A stretch of DNA of 64,000 nucleotides from Magnetococcales bacterium (GTDB lineage Bacteria; Pseudomonadota; Magnetococcia; Magnetococcales; DC0425bin3). Below, one piece after another: positions 19,184-60,495 of the stretch (the stretch's first letter is position 1; each line of letters begins with the position of its first letter). Location of the stretch: contig JADGCO010000001.1 of the NCBI GenBank assembly GCA_015228935.1, positions 148,103-212,102 of the forward strand, written 5' to 3'. Under the pieces are notes generated by a model that saw only the letters and a program-made list of their open reading frames with translations, did no database searches and was not told where the DNA came from. The translations under genes and the position numbers were made by a program.

Positions 19184-22100
19184 TCAGCTCTCTTTGGCAG
19201 CAATACGGAAACCGACATTGCCGATTCTTTTTGTCGCAGGGTCACAGCCACGAAAGTCAGACCGCAGGCAATCAGATGGATCAACCCAGGAGCCTCCCCG
19301 CAAAACCATTTTATCTCCCTCGTGGACAATTGGATCGAGCAGTAATCCGTATACATTTCTTTCATGATAATAAAAACTCCGACTCCATTCCCAAACATTT
19401 CCTACCAAATCACTGTGACCGTATGGTCCCTCTCCCAATGGATAAAGGCCCACCGGCGTTGGTACATTGATATTCCCACCAAAATTAGCATGTTCTGGAG
19501 TTGGTTTAGCATCTCCCCAAGGATAAATTCCCCCATCACGTCGTGTCGCCGCTATTTCCCAAACCTTCTCATCGGGTAAACAGATATTTTTTTCTGTCAA
19601 ATCACTTAACCACCGGCAGTAGGCCATGGCTTCAAACCAGGTAACATCAATGACCGGGCGATTGGGATACTGAACATGATGTTCCCACGCACCTGGTTCT
19701 TCCCACATATATTCCAGGCGCAGCTTCCAGCCCTTTTTGTCCCACCATTTTTCTTGCCGATACCCCTCTCCCTGTTCCATAAAAAGCTGATACTCAGCCA
19801 CGGTCACCGGATATTTTCCCAATTTCCATCCTGTCCCGGGAACCGGCAGCAGATTGTCTTGCTTCAGACGGGGGTCTCCTCCTTGCCCTAAAGCTTTTGC
19901 TGCTTCCATACGAGCTTCGATGGAAACTTTTTTTGCTCCTTCCAAGGTAAAAATTTCCATGGAACGCTCAAGCACCTTGCGATAAACGTCTTCAATCTCC
20001 ACCGGTGTTTTGTACTCGTAGGCAGTCATGGGTTGCAGAAGCCGGCCCATGATTCCGGCCATGCGGGCATTTTCTGCCAACGTGCTGTCTTTGCTCCGAG
20101 ACAACAACACCCTTTGTAACAACTGATCCACTCGTCTTGCCCCCCCCTCATCGAAAAGGGCACCGGAAAACAATTCGACCGTTTCCCGCCATTGGGGATT
20201 GTCCAGGCGGTCTTTGATGATCGGCCAATAGTCATCTGGAGAGTTTTCACCATCTCCCATCCATGCCAGGGCCTGGGCTGCCAGGTATTCCTGGAAGGTC
20301 AAATGCCAGAATTTCAGCTTTTGCGGTCCCACCTCTTCGACAATACCGCTCCCCAGGCACTCAAACCCCAACCATGACCGACCAAATTGTAAACGCTCTG
20401 ACTTGCTTGTTAATTGCGGAAAATGCCTCTGCACCCGAGGTTCCACTACCTCGGCTCCTTCCTGGAAATCAAACACCGCCTGTTTGCCACCCTTGCCACC
20501 CTTCATCATGGCCAGAGCCAGATCGGAAAATGCTTCCAGGGCAAAACGATCCTGGTAACCTGCATTCTTGCGCATGATTGTTCGGGCAGCAATCAACCAG
20601 CGCATGACGGCCTGGTAAACCCGTGCCCGGCCTTCCGGCAACTTTCCTTCGTTCCAATGAACCACGCACAAACAGGTCAACATGACCGGATTGGCTGCCA
20701 AGCGTCGAATGGCTGGTTTTTCCAGAATGGTCTGGAGCAGGATTGTGTGATGATCCTGGGCCACTGATTGTTCTGGTCTGCCAGCAGACCGTTCATGCAA
20801 TGCTGCCGACCAGCGAGTAATGAATTCACGGATCTCCGTCTGACTGAAAGGTTCAATCACAGCATGCGAAAATCCCAATCCCCGCATCTGCTTCACCCCA
20901 AAGGGACGACTGGAGACAACCATGGGACACTCTTTCCATTGTTGAACAGCATCCTGAACAATGGCGATCACCCGTTTTCGAATCTCTTCATCGGCCACTT
21001 CATCCAGGCCATCCAGGAGCAGAAAAACTTTTCCTTCTTCCAGCAGGGTTGTCCAATGGTGACGCCAATCCGCATCCTTTTTGGCAGTGAACGTCAGATC
21101 CAACAAATCCAACAACCGGTCGCATCCATGCCTTAATTGACTGACCGTGTCATCCTTGGTCAGGAGTACGGCCAGTTCCGAGAGTCTAAGAAACAGGGGA
21201 TAACGCGGTTCCTCTTTCTCGTCCATTCCCAAATATCGACCCCGCCAACTCCCTCCCGCCGGATGGGAAATTCCAAGCAAATCCTTGGCCAGCATGGCGG
21301 CCACCAGACGCAAAAAAGTGGTCTTGCCGGCACCTGGTTGTCCTTCAATGAGCAGTCGCCTGGATTGCGGCAGTAGTGACGCCAGGGAAGCCGAGTCTCC
21401 CTGCTCCAGGAATTGACCTTCCCTCACTTCACCCCGACTGCGCAACGGGGTGTACAATTGCTCAACATTGTACCATCCCGCATCCTGACTCCGCCCAGCC
21501 CCGGAACCAATGCCACGAATTTCAATCCTGCTCGTGCGCTCCAGCAAGGATTGCAGCCACGGTCGAAGATCCACAGTCGCTCTTGTTGCGCCATTATTGC
21601 TTTCCGACACTTTTTCAGGGGAACGAATCCGAATCCCTTCTGCCTGCTCCGGGCCAAAGGAGGTATCGTGCATAAAAAAGGCATTCCCCCCTCCGGTGAC
21701 AACCCTCTGCAAGGGCCAGATGCGTATTTGACCATCGGGATGCACCTCGCCCCAGGTATACCCCATGCTGCGCGACTCTCTGGCTGTGCCAAAATGTTCC
21801 AATCCGAACAACGAACTGGCCTGAAGGTAAAAACGGGGTTTGCCGCCAGATTCTGCAATACTCCAGGTGTGGTGGGCGTGCCGATGACCACACAGGAGCG
21901 CCAGGAAGCGTTCCGGGGTATAGACGGATTCCTTGAAACGACTCTGGGCATCCCTGGAGAGCCAATCCAGTGGATGGTGCATCATCAACAAGGCAGGATG
22001 TTCTTCCAGAATCCGCAAGGATGTGGAGCGACCGGTCGTTCCAGCCAACAGCAAGGCCTGCAACTGCTCGGCAGCCACTTCCAAACGCCCATGGGAATCC

Positions 22101-23629
22101 CCCTCCAGACACGCCATCCAGGCCGAATTCAGCCCGACAACGACCAGCGGCATACGACCCGGCAGGACAATCTTGACCAGCAAGTCACCAGGAAAATGCG
22201 AACGCCAATAAACACACCCCTTCCGTTGTGCCAATCCGGGCAGGATGGAACGTTCCAACCAGTTTTGATAATTGACAAAAAGCGGATTAAAAAACGCGGC
22301 ATCGCGTTTTTCCCAAAGGGTATCAAGGAGTTGCGCAATATAGGAATCATCCCGTCCCTTGCCAAAATTGTTCAAGATGGCGTAGGGAAAAGCGGCCAAG
22401 CCCTGGGGACGAACCAGGTCATGGTTGCCGGGAACTGGAATTACCAGTGGATCCTGGTCCATCCGGCCACTCCCCCGCAACCAACCCAAAAGCTCTTTCA
22501 GAAAGCCGTCCACAAACTGAAACTCTTCCGGTTGCCCACGCCAGGTCAGGTCACCCGTCAGGAGGATCAAATCCGGTACACCCGCAATCCTGACTCTCTC
22601 CAACAGGCTGGACTTGAATTCCTGATGAACCTGCCACCACAAGGAACGCTCGGGTGCCCCCAGGTGCAAATCCGAAAGGTGCAACCAGCGCAATGGCGCA
22701 TGACCGGCAGAACTCTCCACCCGGAGAACCGTTTTGCTGCTGATTTTCAGCAAGGTTTTGAACAAGGTTTGATAGTCGGCAAACAGGGCGGTGTCATCCA
22801 TCCCTTTGCTACTGACCAAAAGGGATTCATCCACCTCCAACGCGGGCAGGGAGTGAAGAACATGCACCTGTTGCACATTCAGGGTGGCCTCCAACATGTC
22901 GGCTGGTTCATTGAAAAATTCCCGCATATTTTCAGTCCATCTATCCTCCTCTAAAATGGCCTTTTGCGGAATACGAGTCACCACGGGAATCATGGCAATG
23001 GGTAGTGTATCAACAGGACGTTCTACCATCTTGATCCCACGCATGACCGCCCGTGTGCCCAGCAAATTTTCATTATTGTGGGCAAACAGGCACACCACCG
23101 TGTCAGCCAAAATGGAAATGGCCACACCTCCCACTTCGGTAATCCCGGTGCGGGCATCAATCAACAAATAATCCGGTTGAAATTGTTCGGCAATTTTTTC
23201 TTTCAGTTCGAGGAAGAAACCGATACCCCAGGGATCTTCCCCATAAAACATGTCGTGCCAACTCAACATGGCCAAATGTTTCCAATAATCTGTTTTTTCA
23301 GAATTTCCGGCGGCCAGCATGTGGATGCGACCGGCATGGGTTTCTGTCCCAATCGTTGCATCGGCCAGGCGAGGTTCCAGGACCAGGGCTGGAATTTTTT
23401 CCCACAGAAGTTCCTGATTGATTAAAAACCCATGCAGCAGGTCCACCACGCCCCCGGTCAATGGCTGCTGAAGCTGATTTTTAAATTTGTAGTACAATCC
23501 TGGGGCTTCCAGGTCAAAGTCCATGATAAAGACTTTTTTTCCTTCCCGGGCCAGGTATCGGGCCAGATTGGCAAGGGCCATACTGCGCCCCACTCCCCCT
23601 TTATATGAATAAAAAACGATGGTGTGCAT
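19184..23629 (-). CDS. Giant multidomain STAND protein: ParA/MinD-like ATPase, calcineurin-like metallophosphoesterase, NACHT NTPase, helical arm, FGE-sulfatase (SUMF1-like) domain
   Basis: 1481 aa. Residues 1-290: YSYKGGVGRSMALANLA deviant Walker A and LLIDARTG. Residues 313-640: the phosphoesterase motifs HLSDLHLG, LTGDLTWRG, PGNHD, MMHHP and CGHRHAHH. Residues 755-1000: LLIEGQPGAGKTTFLRL and VFLLLDGLDEV (NACHT Walker A and B). Residues 1262-1481: RPVIDVTWFEAMAYCRWL, GNVWEWS, LRGGSW and VGFRIA (FGE-sulfatase). Confidence 0.85.
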   Translation of the reverse strand: MHTIVFYSYKGGVGRSMALANLARYLAREGKKVFIMDFDLEAPGLYYKFKNQLQQPLTGGVVDLLHGFLINQELLWEKIPALVLEPRLADATIGTETHAGRIHMLAAGNSEKTDYWKHLAMLSWHDMFYGEDPWGIGFFLELKEKIAEQFQPDYLLIDARTGITEVGGVAISILADTVVCLFAHNNENLLGTRAVMRGIKMVERPVDTLPIAMIPVVTRIPQKAILEEDRWTENMREFFNEPADMLEATLNVQQVHVLHSLPALEVDESLLVSSKGMDDTALFADYQTLFKTLLKISSKTVLRVESSAGHAPLRWLHLSDLHLGAPERSLWWQVHQEFKSSLLERVRIAGVPDLILLTGDLTWRGQPEEFQFVDGFLKELLGWLRGSGRMDQDPLVIPVPGNHDLVRPQGLAAFPYAILNNFGKGRDDSYIAQLLDTLWEKRDAAFFNPLFVNYQNWLERSILPGLAQRKGCVYWRSHFPGDLLVKIVLPGRMPLVVVGLNSAWMACLEGDSHGRLEVAAEQLQALLLAGTTGRSTSLRILEEHPALLMMHHPLDWLSRDAQSRFKESVYTPERFLALLCGHRHAHHTWSIAESGGKPRFYLQASSLFGLEHFGTARESRSMGYTWGEVHPDGQIRIWPLQRVVTGGGNAFFMHDTSFGPEQAEGIRIRSPEKVSESNNGATRATVDLRPWLQSLLERTSRIEIRGIGSGAGRSQDAGWYNVEQLYTPLRSRGEVREGQFLEQGDSASLASLLPQSRRLLIEGQPGAGKTTFLRLVAAMLAKDLLGISHPAGGSWRGRYLGMDEKEEPRYPLFLRLSELAVLLTKDDTVSQLRHGCDRLLDLLDLTFTAKKDADWRHHWTTLLEEGKVFLLLDGLDEVADEEIRKRVIAIVQDAVQQWKECPMVVSSRPFGVKQMRGLGFSHAVIEPFSQTEIREFITRWSAALHERSAGRPEQSVAQDHHTILLQTILEKPAIRRLAANPVMLTCLCVVHWNEGKLPEGRARVYQAVMRWLIAARTIMRKNAGYQDRFALEAFSDLALAMMKGGKGGKQAVFDFQEGAEVVEPRVQRHFPQLTSKSERLQFGRSWLGFECLGSGIVEEVGPQKLKFWHLTFQEYLAAQALAWMGDGENSPDDYWPIIKDRLDNPQWRETVELFSGALFDEGGARRVDQLLQRVLLSRSKDSTLAENARMAGIMGRLLQPMTAYEYKTPVEIEDVYRKVLERSMEIFTLEGAKKVSIEARMEAAKALGQGGDPRLKQDNLLPVPGTGWKLGKYPVTVAEYQLFMEQGEGYRQEKWWDKKGWKLRLEYMWEEPGAWEHHVQYPNRPVIDVTWFEAMAYCRWLSDLTEKNICLPDEKVWEIAATRRDGGIYPWGDAKPTPEHANFGGNINVPTPVGLYPLGEGPYGHSDLVGNVWEWSRSFYYHERNVYGLLLDPIVHEGDKMVLRGGSWVDPSDCLRSDFRGCDPATKRIGNVGFRIAAKES

Positions 23630-23646
23630 GGTTCACCTGGACACTT

Positions 23647-24240
23647 TCAAGCGGGAGAAAACACCTGACCCTTGCCGGCTTTGGAATGAAGAACATCTTT
23701 TTCCTGAGATGTCCTATGCTTCATTCCCGGCAACACATTCTGCCGTTCATTTTTTTGCTTCTGGAGTTCTTCATTGCATAATGTTAAAATTTTTAACGTT
23801 TCCAGATACATTTGACGATTTTTTCCCATCGCCGGAGAGTGCAGCATAGCGATCATGATCGCCTGGGCTTGAAGAAAACGTTTCTTGGGCAACAATTCAT
23901 TTTGAATGCGCTGAAGAAAATCCTCAATCTTGTCGGCAGGCGCACGTTGCAAAAGCCGGATGGATGCATCTTGATTTTGTTCGGGTTGGTCCTGCAAAAA
24001 CTTTTTTGCCGCCTCCACGAAAGCGTTTCGCAAATAGACGATCAAAGCTTGCCAATCCGGGAAGGGAGGCATGGCAGACACTGGTTGAAAATTGCCGTTG
24101 GCAAGCAATTGATTCATGTCTGAGTCACTGATCCAGGGGCATCGTTCCTTACTGTATGGTGGTCGCAGGAGCCGTAATTTTTGTTCCATACGCACCACGG
24201 CCCACCCATCTTCCACTGAACATGCCAATAATTCAATCAT
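23647..24240 (-). CDS. Hypothetical protein (197 aa), operon partner of the NACHT protein
   Basis: Complete ORF. Its ATG overlaps the upstream stop (ATGA at 24237-24240), and it ends 17 nt before the NACHT gene start. I recognise no motif. The central and C-terminal part looks helical and is rich in charged residues and Gln. Confidence 0.6.
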   Translation of the reverse strand: MIELLACSVEDGWAVVRMEQKLRLLRPPYSKERCPWISDSDMNQLLANGNFQPVSAMPPFPDWQALIVYLRNAFVEAAKKFLQDQPEQNQDASIRLLQRAPADKIEDFLQRIQNELLPKKRFLQAQAIMIAMLHSPAMGKNRQMYLETLKILTLCNEELQKQKNERQNVLPGMKHRTSQEKDVLHSKAGKGQVFSPA

Positions 24241-25079
24241 AGTGTTTTGCCCCAGGGAATATTATGAATGTCCAACTGCTCAACAACAGTAGTGAACAGT
24301 GCAACTTCCATTCTTCTGCTTTTATCACCCATCGTATTCGCGTTTATGTCATCAAACGCTGAGTTTAAAAGACTTTCAAGCAGATTTTTCTCAATGCGAA
24401 CCTCTTCAATTTGCTCAGGAGTCAGGGAACCAACAAATATCACCTCTATATATTTCGTTTCTTTACAAACCAGTTCCGGCCAATCTTTTTGATCAATTTT
24501 TGCAATTTCTTCGTGATGTTTAAGGGCAGCAAGAGTGTGTCGCTGTTCCATGCTGGCCAGTTCCTGTTTAAATTTATCAAATATCAGAGTAGACTTCGCA
24601 TCCATATACCCAACCAAACTGTCTTCGGCAAGATAGATTGACAATATTTTTTCCCAATATTTTTCCTGCACCACGACGCAGTAATCTCCGTATTTTCTGG
24701 TTCCCTCACCTCCGATATTCAATAAACCATAATAAAATTTTTCCCCATCGACAAAAATTGACTCAAAATTCTTTCTTGGAAGATACCACTCACGCAGCTT
24801 TTCCTCCATCAATCTTTCCGGAGTTCTTCTGCCACGGATTGCGATCTGGTTTGCCCAATCATGAATATTTTTATACTTCTTGCTGAACAAAAAATCATTC
24901 AGCACATAGAGATGCATATTGATGGAAACCCGGGCTGTATTCTGGACATGATTCCGGAAACGACTCAAGAGTGTCGCATCGACTCCGGGAGTGGTCAGAA
25001 GGGTCTGATAACGACTTTCCAGGTCTGGGTCATTTTGTTGCGCCAAGGCAAAAATATCGAGTTTTGAGGAGAGGGACAC
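24237..25079 (-). CDS. Hypothetical protein (280 aa), first gene of the NACHT operon
   Basis: Complete ORF with a GTG start at 25079. This is the most AT-rich part of the window, so a 280-codon open frame is unlikely to be chance. No recognisable domain. Confidence 0.6.
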   Translation of the reverse strand: MSLSSKLDIFALAQQNDPDLESRYQTLLTTPGVDATLLSRFRNHVQNTARVSINMHLYVLNDFLFSKKYKNIHDWANQIAIRGRRTPERLMEEKLREWYLPRKNFESIFVDGEKFYYGLLNIGGEGTRKYGDYCVVVQEKYWEKILSIYLAEDSLVGYMDAKSTLIFDKFKQELASMEQRHTLAALKHHEEIAKIDQKDWPELVCKETKYIEVIFVGSLTPEQIEEVRIEKNLLESLLNSAFDDINANTMGDKSRRMEVALFTTVVEQLDIHNIPWGKTL

Positions 25080-25566
25080 CTGCTTGCATCCCTGATTGGA
25101 GTCACGATTCCGAAGGGATGAAATCCATGGTCAGCCTGTCTGAAATTTTGATTTCACTCATGCGGACGGCGGTTATTTTATCATGAATTGATCGTCCGTC
25201 AAGATTTTAATTTTCGTTTGTGTCCTATTTCCAGAATCCAATCGCGACGGAAGCATATTTGAATGCCAGCCCGCTGATTAAACTTTATGCAGTGTCCTGG
25301 TGTGGGGAAGTTGGGTGGAATCTCCAAAAGGCAGACAGCACTCGCTCCAATTAAATGGCATATTACTTGCTTGAACCATGGCATCGGGTCTGATCGGGTT
25401 GAATGTTTGCTGGGTCTCATCTAAGATAGTGAAGAGAGTTCATTTTACGAACTGTGTAGCCACCAGTGTGGAGAGTGAGTGAATATTATGATCAGGGGGG
25501 AATATCCATCAGCCCTGGCTGGCTTGGTCAGGATATTTCAGATCATGAATAGACACTCAAACCTAG

Positions 25567-31982: not shown

Positions 31983-32501
31983 ATGAAGAAAAACAGCATT
32001 CGTATCTTGCCAGGACAAAAAAGCTGGCAAGAATACGGCAGGCCAAACCTTGCGGAAGTTCCCGATCATTTTCGGATTCGACAACCTGCAATACTTATTG
32101 CCGGTAGATCATTGGACGAGGCTTTGCAAATTTTGACAAACGCAGTCGGAATTTCCCCGACAAATTTGATGCGCATCGTGGAAACTCCGGTCGAGAAAGT
32201 AATCCTGCAACGAAAACTATTGGAACATGTGGCAGTAAAAAGAACAGATGCCCGGGAGCAATTTGGTAATTTTTTGCTTCCGACGTTGACCGATCCCTAT
32301 GAGGTATGGCTGACACGGTATCAAGATGGATACCGCACTCAGTATATTGGTCTGTTCCAAGGACACCGCGACATGCTGGCTATCGTCCAGGTGACCCAGG
32401 AAAAGAACTTGTTTTGGAACTTGATCCGTGCAAGATCCAGATACATGGACAGCCGGCGTGTTGGAACATTGATTTACACAAAAGAAAAGGTGGGAGGTTA
32501 G
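31983..32501 (+). CDS. Hypothetical protein, possibly a phage/plasmid-type BECR-fold (PBECR-like) nuclease domain
   Basis: 172 aa. The segment LLEHVAVKRTDAREQFGNFLLPTLTDPYEVWL...YIGLF resembles the H..K/R...lp.l..Pdev... pattern I associate with PBECR domains. This is weak, by-eye evidence only. Confidence 0.45.
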   Translation: MKKNSIRILPGQKSWQEYGRPNLAEVPDHFRIRQPAILIAGRSLDEALQILTNAVGISPTNLMRIVETPVEKVILQRKLLEHVAVKRTDAREQFGNFLLPTLTDPYEVWLTRYQDGYRTQYIGLFQGHRDMLAIVQVTQEKNLFWNLIRARSRYMDSRRVGTLIYTKEKVGG

Positions 32502-53310: not shown

Positions 53311-53532
53311 TTATTCACCCGGCTTGATGATGTTCGATTCCGGAATTATCCGTCCTTGTTCTTCAGCCACATCCAACCAGGAGAGCATGGCTTCCCTGCC
53401 ATTGGCTAAGGCATCTTCGACCGTTTCTCCATCAGACATGCAACCGGGCAGGTCGGGAAATTCGATCAGATAACCACCACCTTCTTCCTTTTTCAGATGA
53501 CGGATCATGAAGGGAAAGTTTGGTTCGTTCAT
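53311..53532 (-). CDS. hicB: HicB-family antitoxin
   Basis: 73 aa. FMIRHLKKEEGGGYLIEFPDLPGCMSDGETVEDALANGREAMLSWL is the HicB/UPF0150 RNase-H-like fold pattern. It overlaps hicA by 4 nt. Confidence 0.8.
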   Translation of the reverse strand: MNEPNFPFMIRHLKKEEGGGYLIEFPDLPGCMSDGETVEDALANGREAMLSWLDVAEEQGRIIPESNIIKPGE

Positions 53533-53771
53533 TTTGCATTCTCGATTGTGTCGATCATTTCGACTAATTTGAAAATATAGACTGGTTTCAACGGTTTGTG
53601 AGCTGGAATACTCAAAATTTCTGTGACACTGGGATGAGAAAAAATCACATGGCTTCCACGAGGATTTCGCACGATCATTCCATATCGCTCGGCAAGAGTC
53701 TTGATTTCCTCAATTCGCCAGTCACGGGCACTGTTCCGCATTTTCTGGAGAACTTTTTGAGCTTTCGTCAT
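53529..53771 (-). CDS. hicA: HicA-family mRNA interferase toxin
   Basis: 80 aa. WRIEEIKTLAERYGMIVRNPRGSHVIFSHPSVTEILSIPAHKPLKPVYIFKLVEMI is the HicA/YcfA pattern, including the GSH motif. Confidence 0.75.
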   Translation of the reverse strand: MTKAQKVLQKMRNSARDWRIEEIKTLAERYGMIVRNPRGSHVIFSHPSVTEILSIPAHKPLKPVYIFKLVEMIDTIENAK

Positions 53772-57706: not shown

Positions 57707-58033
57707 CGCGTTGCCTCACCCTGTTTGCCAAAGTATTGTTCTCCTTTGCCGGCCACAGGCAATTATTTCCCGTGGCTGCCAGGCAGGATTTTCCGGACAA
57801 CAGCCTGGGAACCAGCCCGGGTTGTGTTTCTGTTGCCTTGAAATAGGTGCCCTGCCGAGGAAAAAGCATAAATCAGGCCAAGCGTGGGCTGTCTGGCAAG
57901 CCTGATGCCAGGCGATGAGATGAATATTAGCGGTGTGCTGAAGAAGAATGCTTTTCACATTGATGACAACCACTGCCTGGCTATACACTCTTCGATAGAA
58001 GCTTCACATCCTGTTTGGTATGGAACGCGCACC

Positions 58034-59296
58034 ATGGCTATGATCGAAGGACTTCGCATTCGTAACTATCGTGCCCTCAAAGACATCACGATGGGCAGAA
58101 TTGGCACCGATCCTGACTACAAGGATGTTGATGAACTGACACCTCTGGTAGTGGTTATTGGCAGGAATGGTGCTGGCAAGAGTACCCTTTTCGATGCTTT
58201 TGGCTTTCTGGCTGACTGCATGGAGATGGATGTGGAAACTGCCTGCAACGTAGGCTGGCGTGGCGGACTGGACAAACTTCTTTCAGTTGACGTGCAGGAT
58301 GATCCAAACGCCACCCTGGATTTCGTCGTCTATTACCGGGAAGCACAAAACGAAAGACCCATTACCTACGAGATTTCCATTGGCCGCAATCCAAAAACCG
58401 GCGAGGCCTGCGTGGCATCGGAAAAGTTGCGGCAACGCCGCCTTGGAGAGAGGTATGGTCGCCCCTATCCCTTCCTTGATCTGACCTTCGGCCGGGGATA
58501 CGCATGGGCAGGCCAGAAAAGCGTGGAAGGAGACGAGGCAGGGGACAAAATGGCTGTCACCCTCAATCCCGGTCGGCTGGCCATCACGACCCTGGCAGAA
58601 CATATCAAAGATCATCCCCGCGTCACCCGATTCCGCAATTTTATCAAGGGTTGGTACTTGAGCTACTTTACTCCTGACGCTGCCCGTCAGACGCCCAAGT
58701 TCAAACCCGAGACGCACCTTGATCTGCGCGGAGAAAATCTCGGCAATGTGGTCCACCATATGTATACCAGGGACAAAAAGCGCTTCGAAAAAGTACTGGA
58801 TCGTATCGGGCGGAAAATTCCGGGCATTGGACGTATTACGCCCTATGTGGATTCGGTGACCAAAAACGTTTATCTGCAATTTTTTGACAAGGGGTTCACC
58901 ACGTCCTTTTTTGCTCCCCAAATGTCTGATGGTACCCTGAAACTCTTCGCATACATGCTGCTCCTGGAAGATCCTGAACCGCCTCCCTTCATCTGTATCG
59001 AAGAGCCGGAAAACGGCCTGCATCACAAACTGCTGGAAGATCTGGCTCGCGAGTTCCGTGCCCACGCGGAAAGGATGCCAAAGCCGCCACAGCTTTTCAT
59101 CACCACTCACCAGCCCTACTTCGTCGATGCACTGACACCTGCAGAGACGTGGATCCTGGAAAAACAGGACAATGGTTTCGCTACTCTTTCTCATGCCAGC
59201 GACAACCCAGTCATCGTGAACATGGTCAATGAGGGTATTCCCCTGGGAAACCTGTGGTACAGCGACTACATGGACGATTGGACGGACGTGAGATGA
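58034..59296 (+). CDS. ABC/SMC-like (AAA_15/21, COG4637-type) ATPase
   Basis: Track ORF trimmed to ATG 58034. Motifs: Walker A VIGRNGAGKSTLFDAFGFL, signature-like MSDGTLKLFAYMLLL, Walker B FICIEEPENGLH and H-loop ITTHQP. Confidence 0.85.
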   Translation: MAMIEGLRIRNYRALKDITMGRIGTDPDYKDVDELTPLVVVIGRNGAGKSTLFDAFGFLADCMEMDVETACNVGWRGGLDKLLSVDVQDDPNATLDFVVYYREAQNERPITYEISIGRNPKTGEACVASEKLRQRRLGERYGRPYPFLDLTFGRGYAWAGQKSVEGDEAGDKMAVTLNPGRLAITTLAEHIKDHPRVTRFRNFIKGWYLSYFTPDAARQTPKFKPETHLDLRGENLGNVVHHMYTRDKKRFEKVLDRIGRKIPGIGRITPYVDSVTKNVYLQFFDKGFTTSFFAPQMSDGTLKLFAYMLLLEDPEPPPFICIEEPENGLHHKLLEDLAREFRAHAERMPKPPQLFITTHQPYFVDALTPAETWILEKQDNGFATLSHASDNPVIVNMVNEGIPLGNLWYSDYMDDWTDVR

Positions 59297-59961
59297 AATT
59301 TCATATCCTTGTCGAGGGAATCTCCGACAAAACTGCCCTATGGTATCTGCTGCCTGGAATTCTTGGTCCTCGGGAACATCCACACATGTGGTATATCCAC
59401 AAACATAAAGGCATCGGCTCACTTTCCACGGCTCCCCATACCGTGGTCAAATCTGCGGAAACTTTGCTGGGCCAACTGCCCACCAAACTGAAGGCCTACG
59501 GACAAGCTTTAAAAGAAGATGAAATCGTTGTGGTTCTGCTTGACCTGGATGATAAAGATCAGGCCTTGTTTTGTACTCAGATGGCATGCCTTGTGGCTGG
59601 AATTAATCCCATGCCCAACCTTCTCGTCTGTTTTGCCATTGAAGAGCTGGAAGCCTGGTATCTGGGAGACATGACGGCTCTGTTTACAGCTTTTCCAGAG
59701 GCCAGAAAACAAAGTGTTTTGGTAGGTGGTTACGTCCAGGACAGTATATGCGGTACATGGGAATTGTTGGTGCGTGTCACCCTTGGCAAGGATCCAGCGT
59801 CACTGTCCAAGAGAGGTCGATGTGAATCGGGAGAGTTCAAGACCCAACTTGCCAACAAGATTTCGCCACACATGGATGTTGATAAAAACCTTTCTCCAAG
59901 TTTCCAAACTTTCAGAGATTTGTTGCGGAATACAGCAAACCTTCCACTCAAAGTTTTCTGA
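59293..59961 (+). CDS. DUF4276-like (Toprim-like) protein
   Basis: Track ORF trimmed to ATG 59293, which overlaps the ATPase stop (ATGA). MKFHILVEGISDKTAL carries an early invariant-looking Glu. VVVLLDLDD is a mid-protein acidic cluster. Length is 222 aa. Confidence 0.65.
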   Translation: MKFHILVEGISDKTALWYLLPGILGPREHPHMWYIHKHKGIGSLSTAPHTVVKSAETLLGQLPTKLKAYGQALKEDEIVVVLLDLDDKDQALFCTQMACLVAGINPMPNLLVCFAIEELEAWYLGDMTALFTAFPEARKQSVLVGGYVQDSICGTWELLVRVTLGKDPASLSKRGRCESGEFKTQLANKISPHMDVDKNLSPSFQTFRDLLRNTANLPLKVF

Positions 59962-60126
59962 ATTTTGCAGGTAAGGGTTTTGCGGGATGCGCATCCCGGT
60001 CACTGTCTCTTCCATGCGTGTGGATCCCTTGGCGTGAGGATCCCTTGATGGCAATACCTTCTGGAAAAACTTGTCCCAGGATTGTCAATTCAGAGCCAGG
60101 TTCCAGTCGTCAAAATCCAAAATTGC

Positions 60127-60495
60127 TCAAATATCACTACCTGAAAGAGCCAAGTGAAAAAATGCATGGAAATTGATCTGGATCAAGTTTCCCTTATATT
60201 TTGTGTGGACAACGGGCCGCACCATCGGGCAGGATCCTGAACCTGTTGCCCTGCTCGCTGTGAGGCCGAAGTCGAAAGTGCTGCACACAGGGAGTCTTGC
60301 GTATCTGTTGGTTGGTCGTCCATTGCCGTTTGCGTTCAGATCTGTTGTGGTGAATTTTGTCAAGATTCCGTTATAGTGATTTTTTTCAGTGGTCTTAACG
60401 TGATCCGGGTCCGGTTTTCCTGATTCTGGCGTAAAAAGGGATCCGGTGCATGTTGGGTGGTTGGTGATGTTCAAAAGGTCAAGCATGTGAAACAT
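60127..60495 (-). CDS. Questionable hypothetical protein (122 aa)
   Basis: A long open frame in a relatively AT-rich spacer. The sequence is T/N/G-rich with no recognisable motif or obvious RBS. Confidence 0.25.
   Translation of the reverse strand: MFHMLDLLNITNHPTCTGSLFTPESGKPDPDHVKTTEKNHYNGILTKFTTTDLNANGNGRPTNRYARLPVCSTFDFGLTASRATGSGSCPMVRPVVHTKYKGNLIQINFHAFFHLALSGSDI

Follow-up and report, generated by a model that had tools for sequence, protein, structure and literature searches.

A solitary HEC-01-type gene pair, a candidate anti-phage module, in a Magnetococcales genome

Two adjacent genes of a Magnetococcales bacterium, carried on a 64,000-nucleotide stretch of contig JADGCO010000001.1 (assembly GCA_015228935.1; hereafter the window), raise the question of whether an ATPase coupled to a small DUF4276 protein constitutes an anti-phage system and, if so, of which kind. 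The first open reading frame (ORF), A (58034..59296, plus strand), encodes a 420-amino-acid (aa) ABC ATPase of the SMC/Rad50-like type, the presumed sensor and regulator; the second, B (59293..59961, plus strand), encodes a 222-aa DUF4276 protein, the presumed nuclease effector. An original prediction, made by a model from the letters alone, had called these genes a candidate defence pair. PADLOC, one of the checks it had proposed, returned full-length matches to HEC-01 for both proteins: A matched the HEC-01A model PDLC04182 at 1.6e-155 (residues 1-414 on 1-401 of 406 positions), and B, adjacent and on the same strand, matched the HEC-01B model PDLC04205 at 2.7e-68 (residues 1-213 on 1-211 of 213 positions). 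Judged by these profile matches, the pair is a copy of the catalogued two-gene candidate anti-phage system HEC-01, and it belongs to the subfamily defined by these two models, which is other than that of Pseudomonas agarici. Because A and B match the HEC-01 models end to end, this kind of system was already catalogued. The pair is thus not new in kind, modules made of an ATPase and a DUF4276 protein having been described before. The prediction's statement that no system built on a DUF4276 partner had been characterised needs amending in this respect, since HEC-01, Mad3/Mad4 of MADS and Menshen have all been described; it stands insofar as the mechanism is still not worked out.

The gene structure of the pair was rechecked on the sequence. 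The two ORFs, their lengths and their coordinates were all borne out, as was the ATGA in which the stop codon of A and the start codon of B share 4 nt (59293..59296), consistent with translational coupling. Homologue searches yielded 213 relatives of B at E≤0.001 and at least 8000 of A at E≤1e-10; given these numbers, we consider both ORFs to be real genes rather than chance reading frames. Homologue lengths (416-421 aa for A, 213-227 aa for B) agree with the starts given above and lend no support to the longer GTG-initiated ORFs that begin at 57884 and 59254. Upstream of A, a low-GC spacer of 327 nt (57707..58033) separates the pair from a divergent methyltransferase gene and, by its position and composition, presumably holds the promoter of the pair. 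A promoter search upstream of A returned a single sigma-70-like match, which overlaps the start codon and does not rise above chance.

Protein A displays all the elements of an ABC ATPase. It matches the Pfam families AAA_21 (4.8e-35) and AAA_15, and the four motifs listed in the original prediction were each found in place, on the plus strand like all the features of the pair given below. The Walker A motif, or P-loop, GRNGAGKS (58160..58183, from aa 43) includes K49, and its residues G43, N45, G46, G48 and K49 are invariant in 86 of 86 aligned pairs. The ABC signature-like MSDGT (58922..58936, from aa 297) has S298 and G300 invariant in the same 86 pairs and T301 conserved in 83, while the Walker B motif and D-loop, ICIEEPENGLH (58991..59023, from aa 320), bear the invariant E323, E324 and E326 (86/86), with a catalytic glutamate next to Walker B. 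The H-loop TTHQP (59102..59116, from aa 357) contributes H359, again invariant (86/86). An AlphaFold2 model of A (mean predicted local distance difference test score, pLDDT, 89; predicted template-modelling score, pTM, 0.88) adopts the ABC head fold. Foldseek retrieved 212 PDB matches to this model at E≤0.001, the best being PtuA of Septu and retrons, SMC1, Rad50, Ts OLD and GajA (E 4e-13 to 6e-11, probability 1.00 each), and no one family stands out among them. No AriA chain appeared among the 50 best structural matches in the PDB, and a single-sequence search of PDB sequences with A gave P-loop-level matches only. Among NCBIfam models, MAD3 scored 95.5 bits, below its cutoff of 420 bits, and PtuA reached E 0.002. 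These data demonstrate that A is an SMC/Rad50-like ABC ATPase head without a long coiled coil, as the prediction of an SMC/ABC-type ATPase had it (AAA_21 at 4.8e-35, and structural matches to the model at E values of the order of 1e-13 to 1e-11).

Is B, in turn, a DUF4276 protein with a Toprim-like catalytic core? The first part of this question received a clear answer. In the HMMER check, B passed the threshold of Pfam DUF4276 (PF14103) with 44.8 bits against a gathering threshold of 30.2 (E 2.3e-11, profile positions 1-191 of 192), and all 39 of 39 aligned B homologues also matched this model; no NCBIfam model was matched by B. The motifs HILVEGISD (from aa 4) and VVLLDLDD (from aa 80), on which the DUF4276 and Toprim readings had been founded, are both present. 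The AlphaFold2 model of B (pLDDT 89, pTM 0.88) shows the order b1-a1-b2-a2-b3-a3-b4 followed by helices, suggesting a Toprim-like core at about aa 1-115 and a helical domain at about aa 116-215. In this model, the residue layout is that of a Toprim nuclease, with a glutamate where strand 1 ends and a DxD after strand 3. The putative catalytic glutamate E8 (codon 59314..59316), just after the strand formed by residues 2-7, is invariant (86/86). The putative DxD, D84-L-D86 (59542..59550), follows directly on the strand of residues 77-83; D84 is found in 86 of 86 pairs and D86 in 85, the remaining one having an asparagine. Where strand 4 gives way to the helical domain comes the acidic cluster E117-E118-L-E120 (59641..59652), a candidate second-metal site whose three glutamates are all invariant (86/86), and K183 (codon 59839..59841), equally invariant, lies on a C-terminal helix predicted at residues 176-193; B has further invariant residues besides these. 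Profile searches with the family gave sub-threshold matches to PF20469 (OLD-like_TOPRIM) in 10 of 39 members (best E 0.013) and to DUF3226 in 14 of 39, every unrelated family turning up once only. Taken together, the support for a Toprim fold from our own searches is consistent but weak. The assignment of DUF4276 to Toprim has been reported independently by two papers: Payne et al. (bioRxiv 10.1101/2024.01.29.577857) superposed HEC-01B on Bp OLD and found the metal site conserved, and the Menshen study (PMC12065111) named DUF4276 and RloB as new Toprim members.

To what extent do A and B belong together? A scan of species-representative genomes yielded at least 547 relatives of B. The set of loci compared comprised 83, 80 from the scan and three others, and 81 of them contained enough upstream sequence to be judged. 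In 80 of these 81 loci, across many phyla, B is immediately preceded by a full-length homologue of A, encoded as a separate ORF on the strand of B; the co-conservation on which the original prediction had been made to depend therefore holds. The two genes are always tightly packed: as a rule 2-4 nt separate them, and in a few loci they overlap. Over 86 pairs, the sequence identities of A and B co-vary (Mantel r = 0.72, a value reached in 0 of 999 permutations), and the ATPase-motif and candidate nuclease residues are invariant or nearly so, indicating strong functional constraint on both proteins. We found no third gene conserved beside the pair: no neighbour recurs outside the subsets of loci embedded in BREX or Hma systems. 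The sole locus without an intact ATPase is L013 (8935-10639), where the ORF preceding an intact HEC-01B gene retains just the ~27 C-terminal residues of HEC-01A, fused to TPR-like sequence, and which is either a degraded copy or an assembly chimera.

Embedding in larger defence systems occurs in 9-10 of the 80 loci, about one in eight, the other ~88% of the sampled loci being solitary. The pair sits amid PglX, PglZ, BrxC, BrxA and a helicase in six BREX loci, and between HmaB and HmaC in three Hma loci; one further short contig shows a helicase only beside the pair. For these counts, one representative per neighbour cluster was annotated, and the other members were assigned by BLAST clustering. 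Six of the embedded loci (L028, L031, L033, L059, L078 and L082) also encode a protein of ~513 aa with SLFN AlbA_2, HATPase_c_4 and Fic-like_C domains (for example at L078 1270-2811), which had no PADLOC match and may be a regulator or a further embedded component. A PADLOC match to mad3 on a neighbour in L079 was discarded, the protein being an ABC-F type ATPase (ABC_tran and ABC_tran_Xtn). Two Magnetococcales metagenome-assembled genomes carry a more distant HEC-01-like pair (L088 8385-10264 and L089 8787-10666) within a long run of same-strand, mostly unannotated ORFs that includes Peptidase_S74 and BNR_2 proteins and may be a prophage or tail-fibre region.

We then considered how the pair came to lie where it does. 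The window carries ORFs of rpoB and rpoC size (judged by size only, as they are unannotated) and four tRNA genes, and for this reason was taken to be chromosomal. The flanks are as originally described, with a biosynthetic-type cluster upstream (a small-molecule methyltransferase, a PEP-utilising enzyme, a GATase and an NTP-transferase) and, from about 60557, a molybdopterin oxidoreductase with a TAT signal downstream. The segment between them is indeed richer in A+T: the pair has 50.7% G+C and the segment 57707-60560 has 50.6%, against 55.9% for the whole window and ~58-62% for the flanking genes, and the line 58741-58800, hand-counted at 47% in the prediction, has 46.7%. G+C at third codon positions (GC3) is 0.59 in A and 0.47 in B, compared with 0.68 in the two upstream genes. 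In Magnetococcus sp. DMHC-1, an orthologous pair of the same architecture (95% identical for A and 88% for B) has the same flanks, while in strain THC-1_WYH the pair occupies a different locus. A scan of metagenomes with the neighbouring methyltransferase as query gave 80 loci of ≤66% identity, among which we found no true empty site and, in none, the Mo-enzyme gene. In a search of the flanks for repeats, RNA families and signs of tRNA or integrase attachment, there were no Rfam matches, no nearby tRNA and no terminal repeats. These results support horizontal acquisition of the pair, with low GC and GC3 and variable location as the sole evidence for insertion.

What, then, might the pair do? 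By analogy with OLD, Gabija and PARIS, it is probable in our judgement that the window holds a solitary, horizontally acquired HEC-01 copy that is in effect a split OLD nuclease, in which the ATPase controls a two-metal Toprim nuclease. In such a scheme, A would oligomerise and hold or gate B. A phage-derived cue, or foreign or unmodified nucleic acid, would alter the ATP-bound state of A, and B, with its putative metal-binding Toprim core (E8, D84xD86) and helical-domain residues (E117/E118/E120, K183), would be released or licensed to cut nucleic acid by two-metal catalysis. This cutting would stop phage replication, either directly or through abortive infection. The complex between A and B, the trigger, the substrate, whether DNA or RNA, and a defence phenotype of the window copy are all proposed here from the analogous systems.

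Several observations weigh against this interpretation. With the model of B, the top Foldseek match in the PDB was the C-terminal region of Xcc OLD (6njv; E 0.043, TM 0.35) and the top match in BFVD an RloB-like protein (E 0.019, TM about 0.35), neither of them significant, and a PDB sequence search with the B profile found nothing. A profile-to-single-sequence alignment by hhalign set residues 5-46 of B on 395-436 of P2 Old, with E8 on the LLVEG motif (395-399), at a probability of 5.9% only; the search with the P2 Old C-terminal region had returned only 5 fragments. Of the Toprim layout originally proposed for B, the early Glu and the DxD are conserved and well placed in the model, but the fold match itself is weak. 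With respect to genomic context, the loci outside BREX and Hma, including the window copy, are solitary among unrelated housekeeping genes, and most relatives lie outside defence islands, so that the predicted association with such islands holds for the embedded loci but not for the majority. Of the defence-like elements in the window, the nearest, a HicAB pair, lies at a distance of 4.3 kb on the upstream side. Finally, published tests leave defence by HEC-01 unsettled, with one negative and one positive result. HEC-01 of P. agarici, the only one challenged with a broad set of phages, gave no protection (bioRxiv 10.1101/2024.01.29.577857). A cold-seep HEC-01, cloned alone, was reported to shield E. 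coli B from one or more of the phages T7, T5 and T4 (Nat Commun 2026, PMC12881386), the text of that study giving no effect size for it.

The main rival explanation, which we consider unlikely, is that the pair is a non-autonomous accessory nuclease of a DNA-modification system, cutting unmodified DNA, in which case the window copy would be an orphan, either inactive or reliant on a methylase elsewhere in the genome. The embedded loci speak for this role, as the pair there sits inside a BREX or Hma operon and is read in the same direction, with the methylase gene on one side and the downstream genes on the other. So does MADS, where mad3 and mad4 are needed, deletion of either lowering defence, and where the methylase gene mad5 can be deleted only together with mad2 or mad3; the failure of the solitary P. 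agarici HEC-01 to protect when expressed alone points the same way. However, every catalytic residue is kept even though ~88% of the sampled loci are solitary, the candidates of Payne et al. (bioRxiv 10.1101/2024.01.29.577857) were chosen because they are also found outside hma loci, and the cold-seep copy was reported to be protective when cloned alone. Neither does the gene next door supply a methylase. The adjacent methyltransferase is of the UbiE/Methyltransf_11 type and, in a set of 80 distant loci that are all without A or B, is found beside the PEP-utilising enzyme in 69; because of this type and of this company kept without the pair, we conclude that it is not a DNA methylase partner of A and B. 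That the module survives alone favours autonomous function, and the prevalence of intact solitary copies, with the positive test of a copy cloned alone, speaks against an accessory role, though not decisively.

A second alternative concerns the substrate. The solitary subfamily could act as an autonomous, PARIS-like abortive-infection system, in which B is held by the ATPase, freed by a phage trigger, and cuts cellular RNA, for example tRNA, rather than DNA. We give this version a low probability. If true, DUF4276 would be a second, independently evolved family of Toprim RNase effectors, and the ability of the pair to work either alone or plugged into BREX or Hma would be explained.

It is more doubtful still that the pair is non-immune, either an SMC/Rad50/RecF/OLD-type accessory of DNA repair or recombination or a selfish module of the addiction type, maintained by the harm it does to cells that lose it. 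The model of A is as close to the heads of SMC, Rad50 and cohesin as to defence ATPases, the housekeeping surroundings of most loci suit such a role, and relatives turn up in just 1 of 50,697 phage records and 3 of 72,556 plasmid records, a marked rarity that many defence cassettes do not share. On the other hand, the distribution is patchy over phyla and the locus varies between related Magnetococcales, the atypical composition speaks against a vertically inherited housekeeping role, and the embedding in BREX and Hma, together with the published protection, points to defence. Last, that the genes are a decaying remnant without current function in the source genome is highly improbable, as nothing beyond the solitary low-GC context and one relative with a truncated A gene (L013) suggests it, whereas the two ORFs are unbroken and of full length by comparison with the family models, none of the invariant catalytic residues is missing, and the orthologue in Magnetococcus DMHC-1 has kept the same architecture at 95% (A) and 88% (B) identity.

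Further features of the window were recorded around the pair and beyond it. Downstream, the spacer between B and the molybdopterin oxidoreductase gene (595 nt, low GC) holds a tandem direct repeat at 60016-60047, 55 nt past the B stop, with a 16-nt unit (GCGTGTGGATCCCTTG / GCGTGAGGATCCCTTG); this repeat might be an operator of the molybdopterin oxidoreductase gene or an insertion scar. Two small minus-strand ORFs in the low-GC spacers (57716-57988 and 60127-60495) had no Pfam or PADLOC match and are probably not genes. The HicAB pair (53311-53771, minus strand) consists of a HicB-like antitoxin gene (53311-53532; PF15919, 4.2e-12) and a HicA-like toxin gene (53529-53771; PF07927, 7.2e-07). Wedged between the NTP-transferase and GATase genes, it forms a second small dip in G+C (44-48%), and its genes are also present in the syntenic locus of Magnetococcus DMHC-1 (L001). 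Farther away, a minus-strand gene at 19184-25420 encodes a 1481-aa protein that combines an N-terminal ParA/CbiA-like P-loop, a Metallophos domain, a NACHT/NPHP3_N STAND NTPase and a C-terminal FGE-sulfatase domain, with weak PADLOC matches to PDC-M28B and PDC-S60. Three unannotated ORFs at 23647-25420 flank this gene, and the regional GC3 is low (0.42-0.55). The gene has the look of a candidate immune gene of NLR/Avs-like type, lying on an acquired island of its own. Finally, a 172-aa protein encoded at 31983-32501 (plus strand; GC3 0.49) contains a PBECR2 domain (phage Barnase-EndoU-ColicinE5/D-RelE-like nuclease 2; 2.2e-17) and may be a toxin-type RNase.

The window pair opens no new class of system, and its value is that of a further data point for a module surviving alone. 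HEC-01-type pairs are widespread: this subfamily alone occurs in at least 547 species-representative genomes, its ATPase has at least 8000 close relatives, and one study of cold-seep microbes counts HEC-01 with their most abundant candidate systems. Within this family, the window offers a clean, solitary and intact example from a magnetotactic lineage, and a defined set of residues for mutagenesis, namely K49 and E323/E324 in A, and E8, D84/D86, E117/E118/E120 and K183 in B.

How does the pair compare with the systems already known? Payne et al. (bioRxiv 10.1101/2024.01.29.577857) described HEC-01 as an ABC ATPase together with a TOPRIM protein embedded in Hma. The window pair has the same layout, an ABC ATPase gene followed by a DUF4276/TOPRIM gene, its A shares 35% identity (4e-72) with the HEC-01A of P. 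agarici that these authors tested, and some of its relatives are embedded in Hma, as in the original definition. By contrast, the window pair itself is solitary, and its B is much more divergent than A, aligning by BLAST to the P. agarici protein only around an AxxELEAxYLxD motif. Mad3-Mad4 of the P. aeruginosa MADS system likewise combines an AAA_15/21 ABC ATPase with a DUF4276 protein, but acts inside an eight-gene operon with a methylase, whereas the flanks of the window pair are metabolic, with no other mad genes nearby; the score of A, far below the MAD3 cutoff, and the absence of any NCBIfam match for B place the pair outside MADS. Menshen presents the same domain in another arrangement. 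In its NsnC-C DUF4276 variants (NAR 2025, PMC12065111), DUF4276 is a predicted Toprim nuclease effector beside an ABC-type ATPase system, but as the C-terminal domain of NsnC in a three-gene system, while B of the window is free-standing in a two-gene one.

PARIS shares with the window pair the split, two-gene layout of an ATPase and a small stand-alone Toprim nuclease. In PARIS, an ATPase scaffold is described as releasing its nuclease when it senses a protein of the phage, and no other model for such pairs has been worked out so well; the PARIS paper places 'MADS3-4' and AbiL among the systems that join an ABC ATPase to a TOPRIM protein. The likeness stops at the layout, however. AriB is a DUF4435 protein and B a DUF4276 protein, with no AriB or DUF4435 signal for B in PADLOC or Pfam, nor at E≤5 in 39 family members. 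The sole AriA match of A is to a 304-position model that has the length and match coordinates of Pfam AAA_21 (2e-32), against 1.6e-155 for HEC-01A, and relatives of the window pair are very rare on phages, a further difference from PARIS. Of the PARIS/OLD-like character originally predicted, the two-gene ATPase and Toprim-like layout is therefore retained, and the pair is PARIS-like in this layout only. PtuA of Septu and of retron Ec78-Eco7 provides the best structural matches of A (E 4e-13 to 1e-12) and is also paired with a small nuclease, but this partner, PtuB, is an HNH nuclease and not a Toprim protein, and the sequence similarity is negligible.

The OLD family (P2 Old, Bp, Xcc and Ts OLD, and GajA of Gabija) differs from the window pair in being one fused polypeptide, where the window has two ORFs joined by a stop/start overlap, and its Toprim model PF20469 is matched below threshold only. 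In its overall plan, an ABC ATPase followed by a Toprim core and a helical domain, it nevertheless resembles the pair: B has the size and the two-domain plan of the OLD C-terminal region (about 205 aa, with ~115 of Toprim and ~90 helical), OLD is its top PDB match, and the matches of A include Ts OLD and GajA. The kinds of residue are shared as well, namely a Glu, a DxD, an acidic residue where the helical domain begins, and a Lys. In Bp OLD, metal A is bound by E400, D455 and D457, and metal B by E404, T506 and E508, the last two at the start of the helical domain, with K562 completing the active site (PMC6755086). By analogy, E117/E118/E120 of B may correspond to the metal-B residues T506/E508, and K183 is a candidate counterpart of the catalytic K562.

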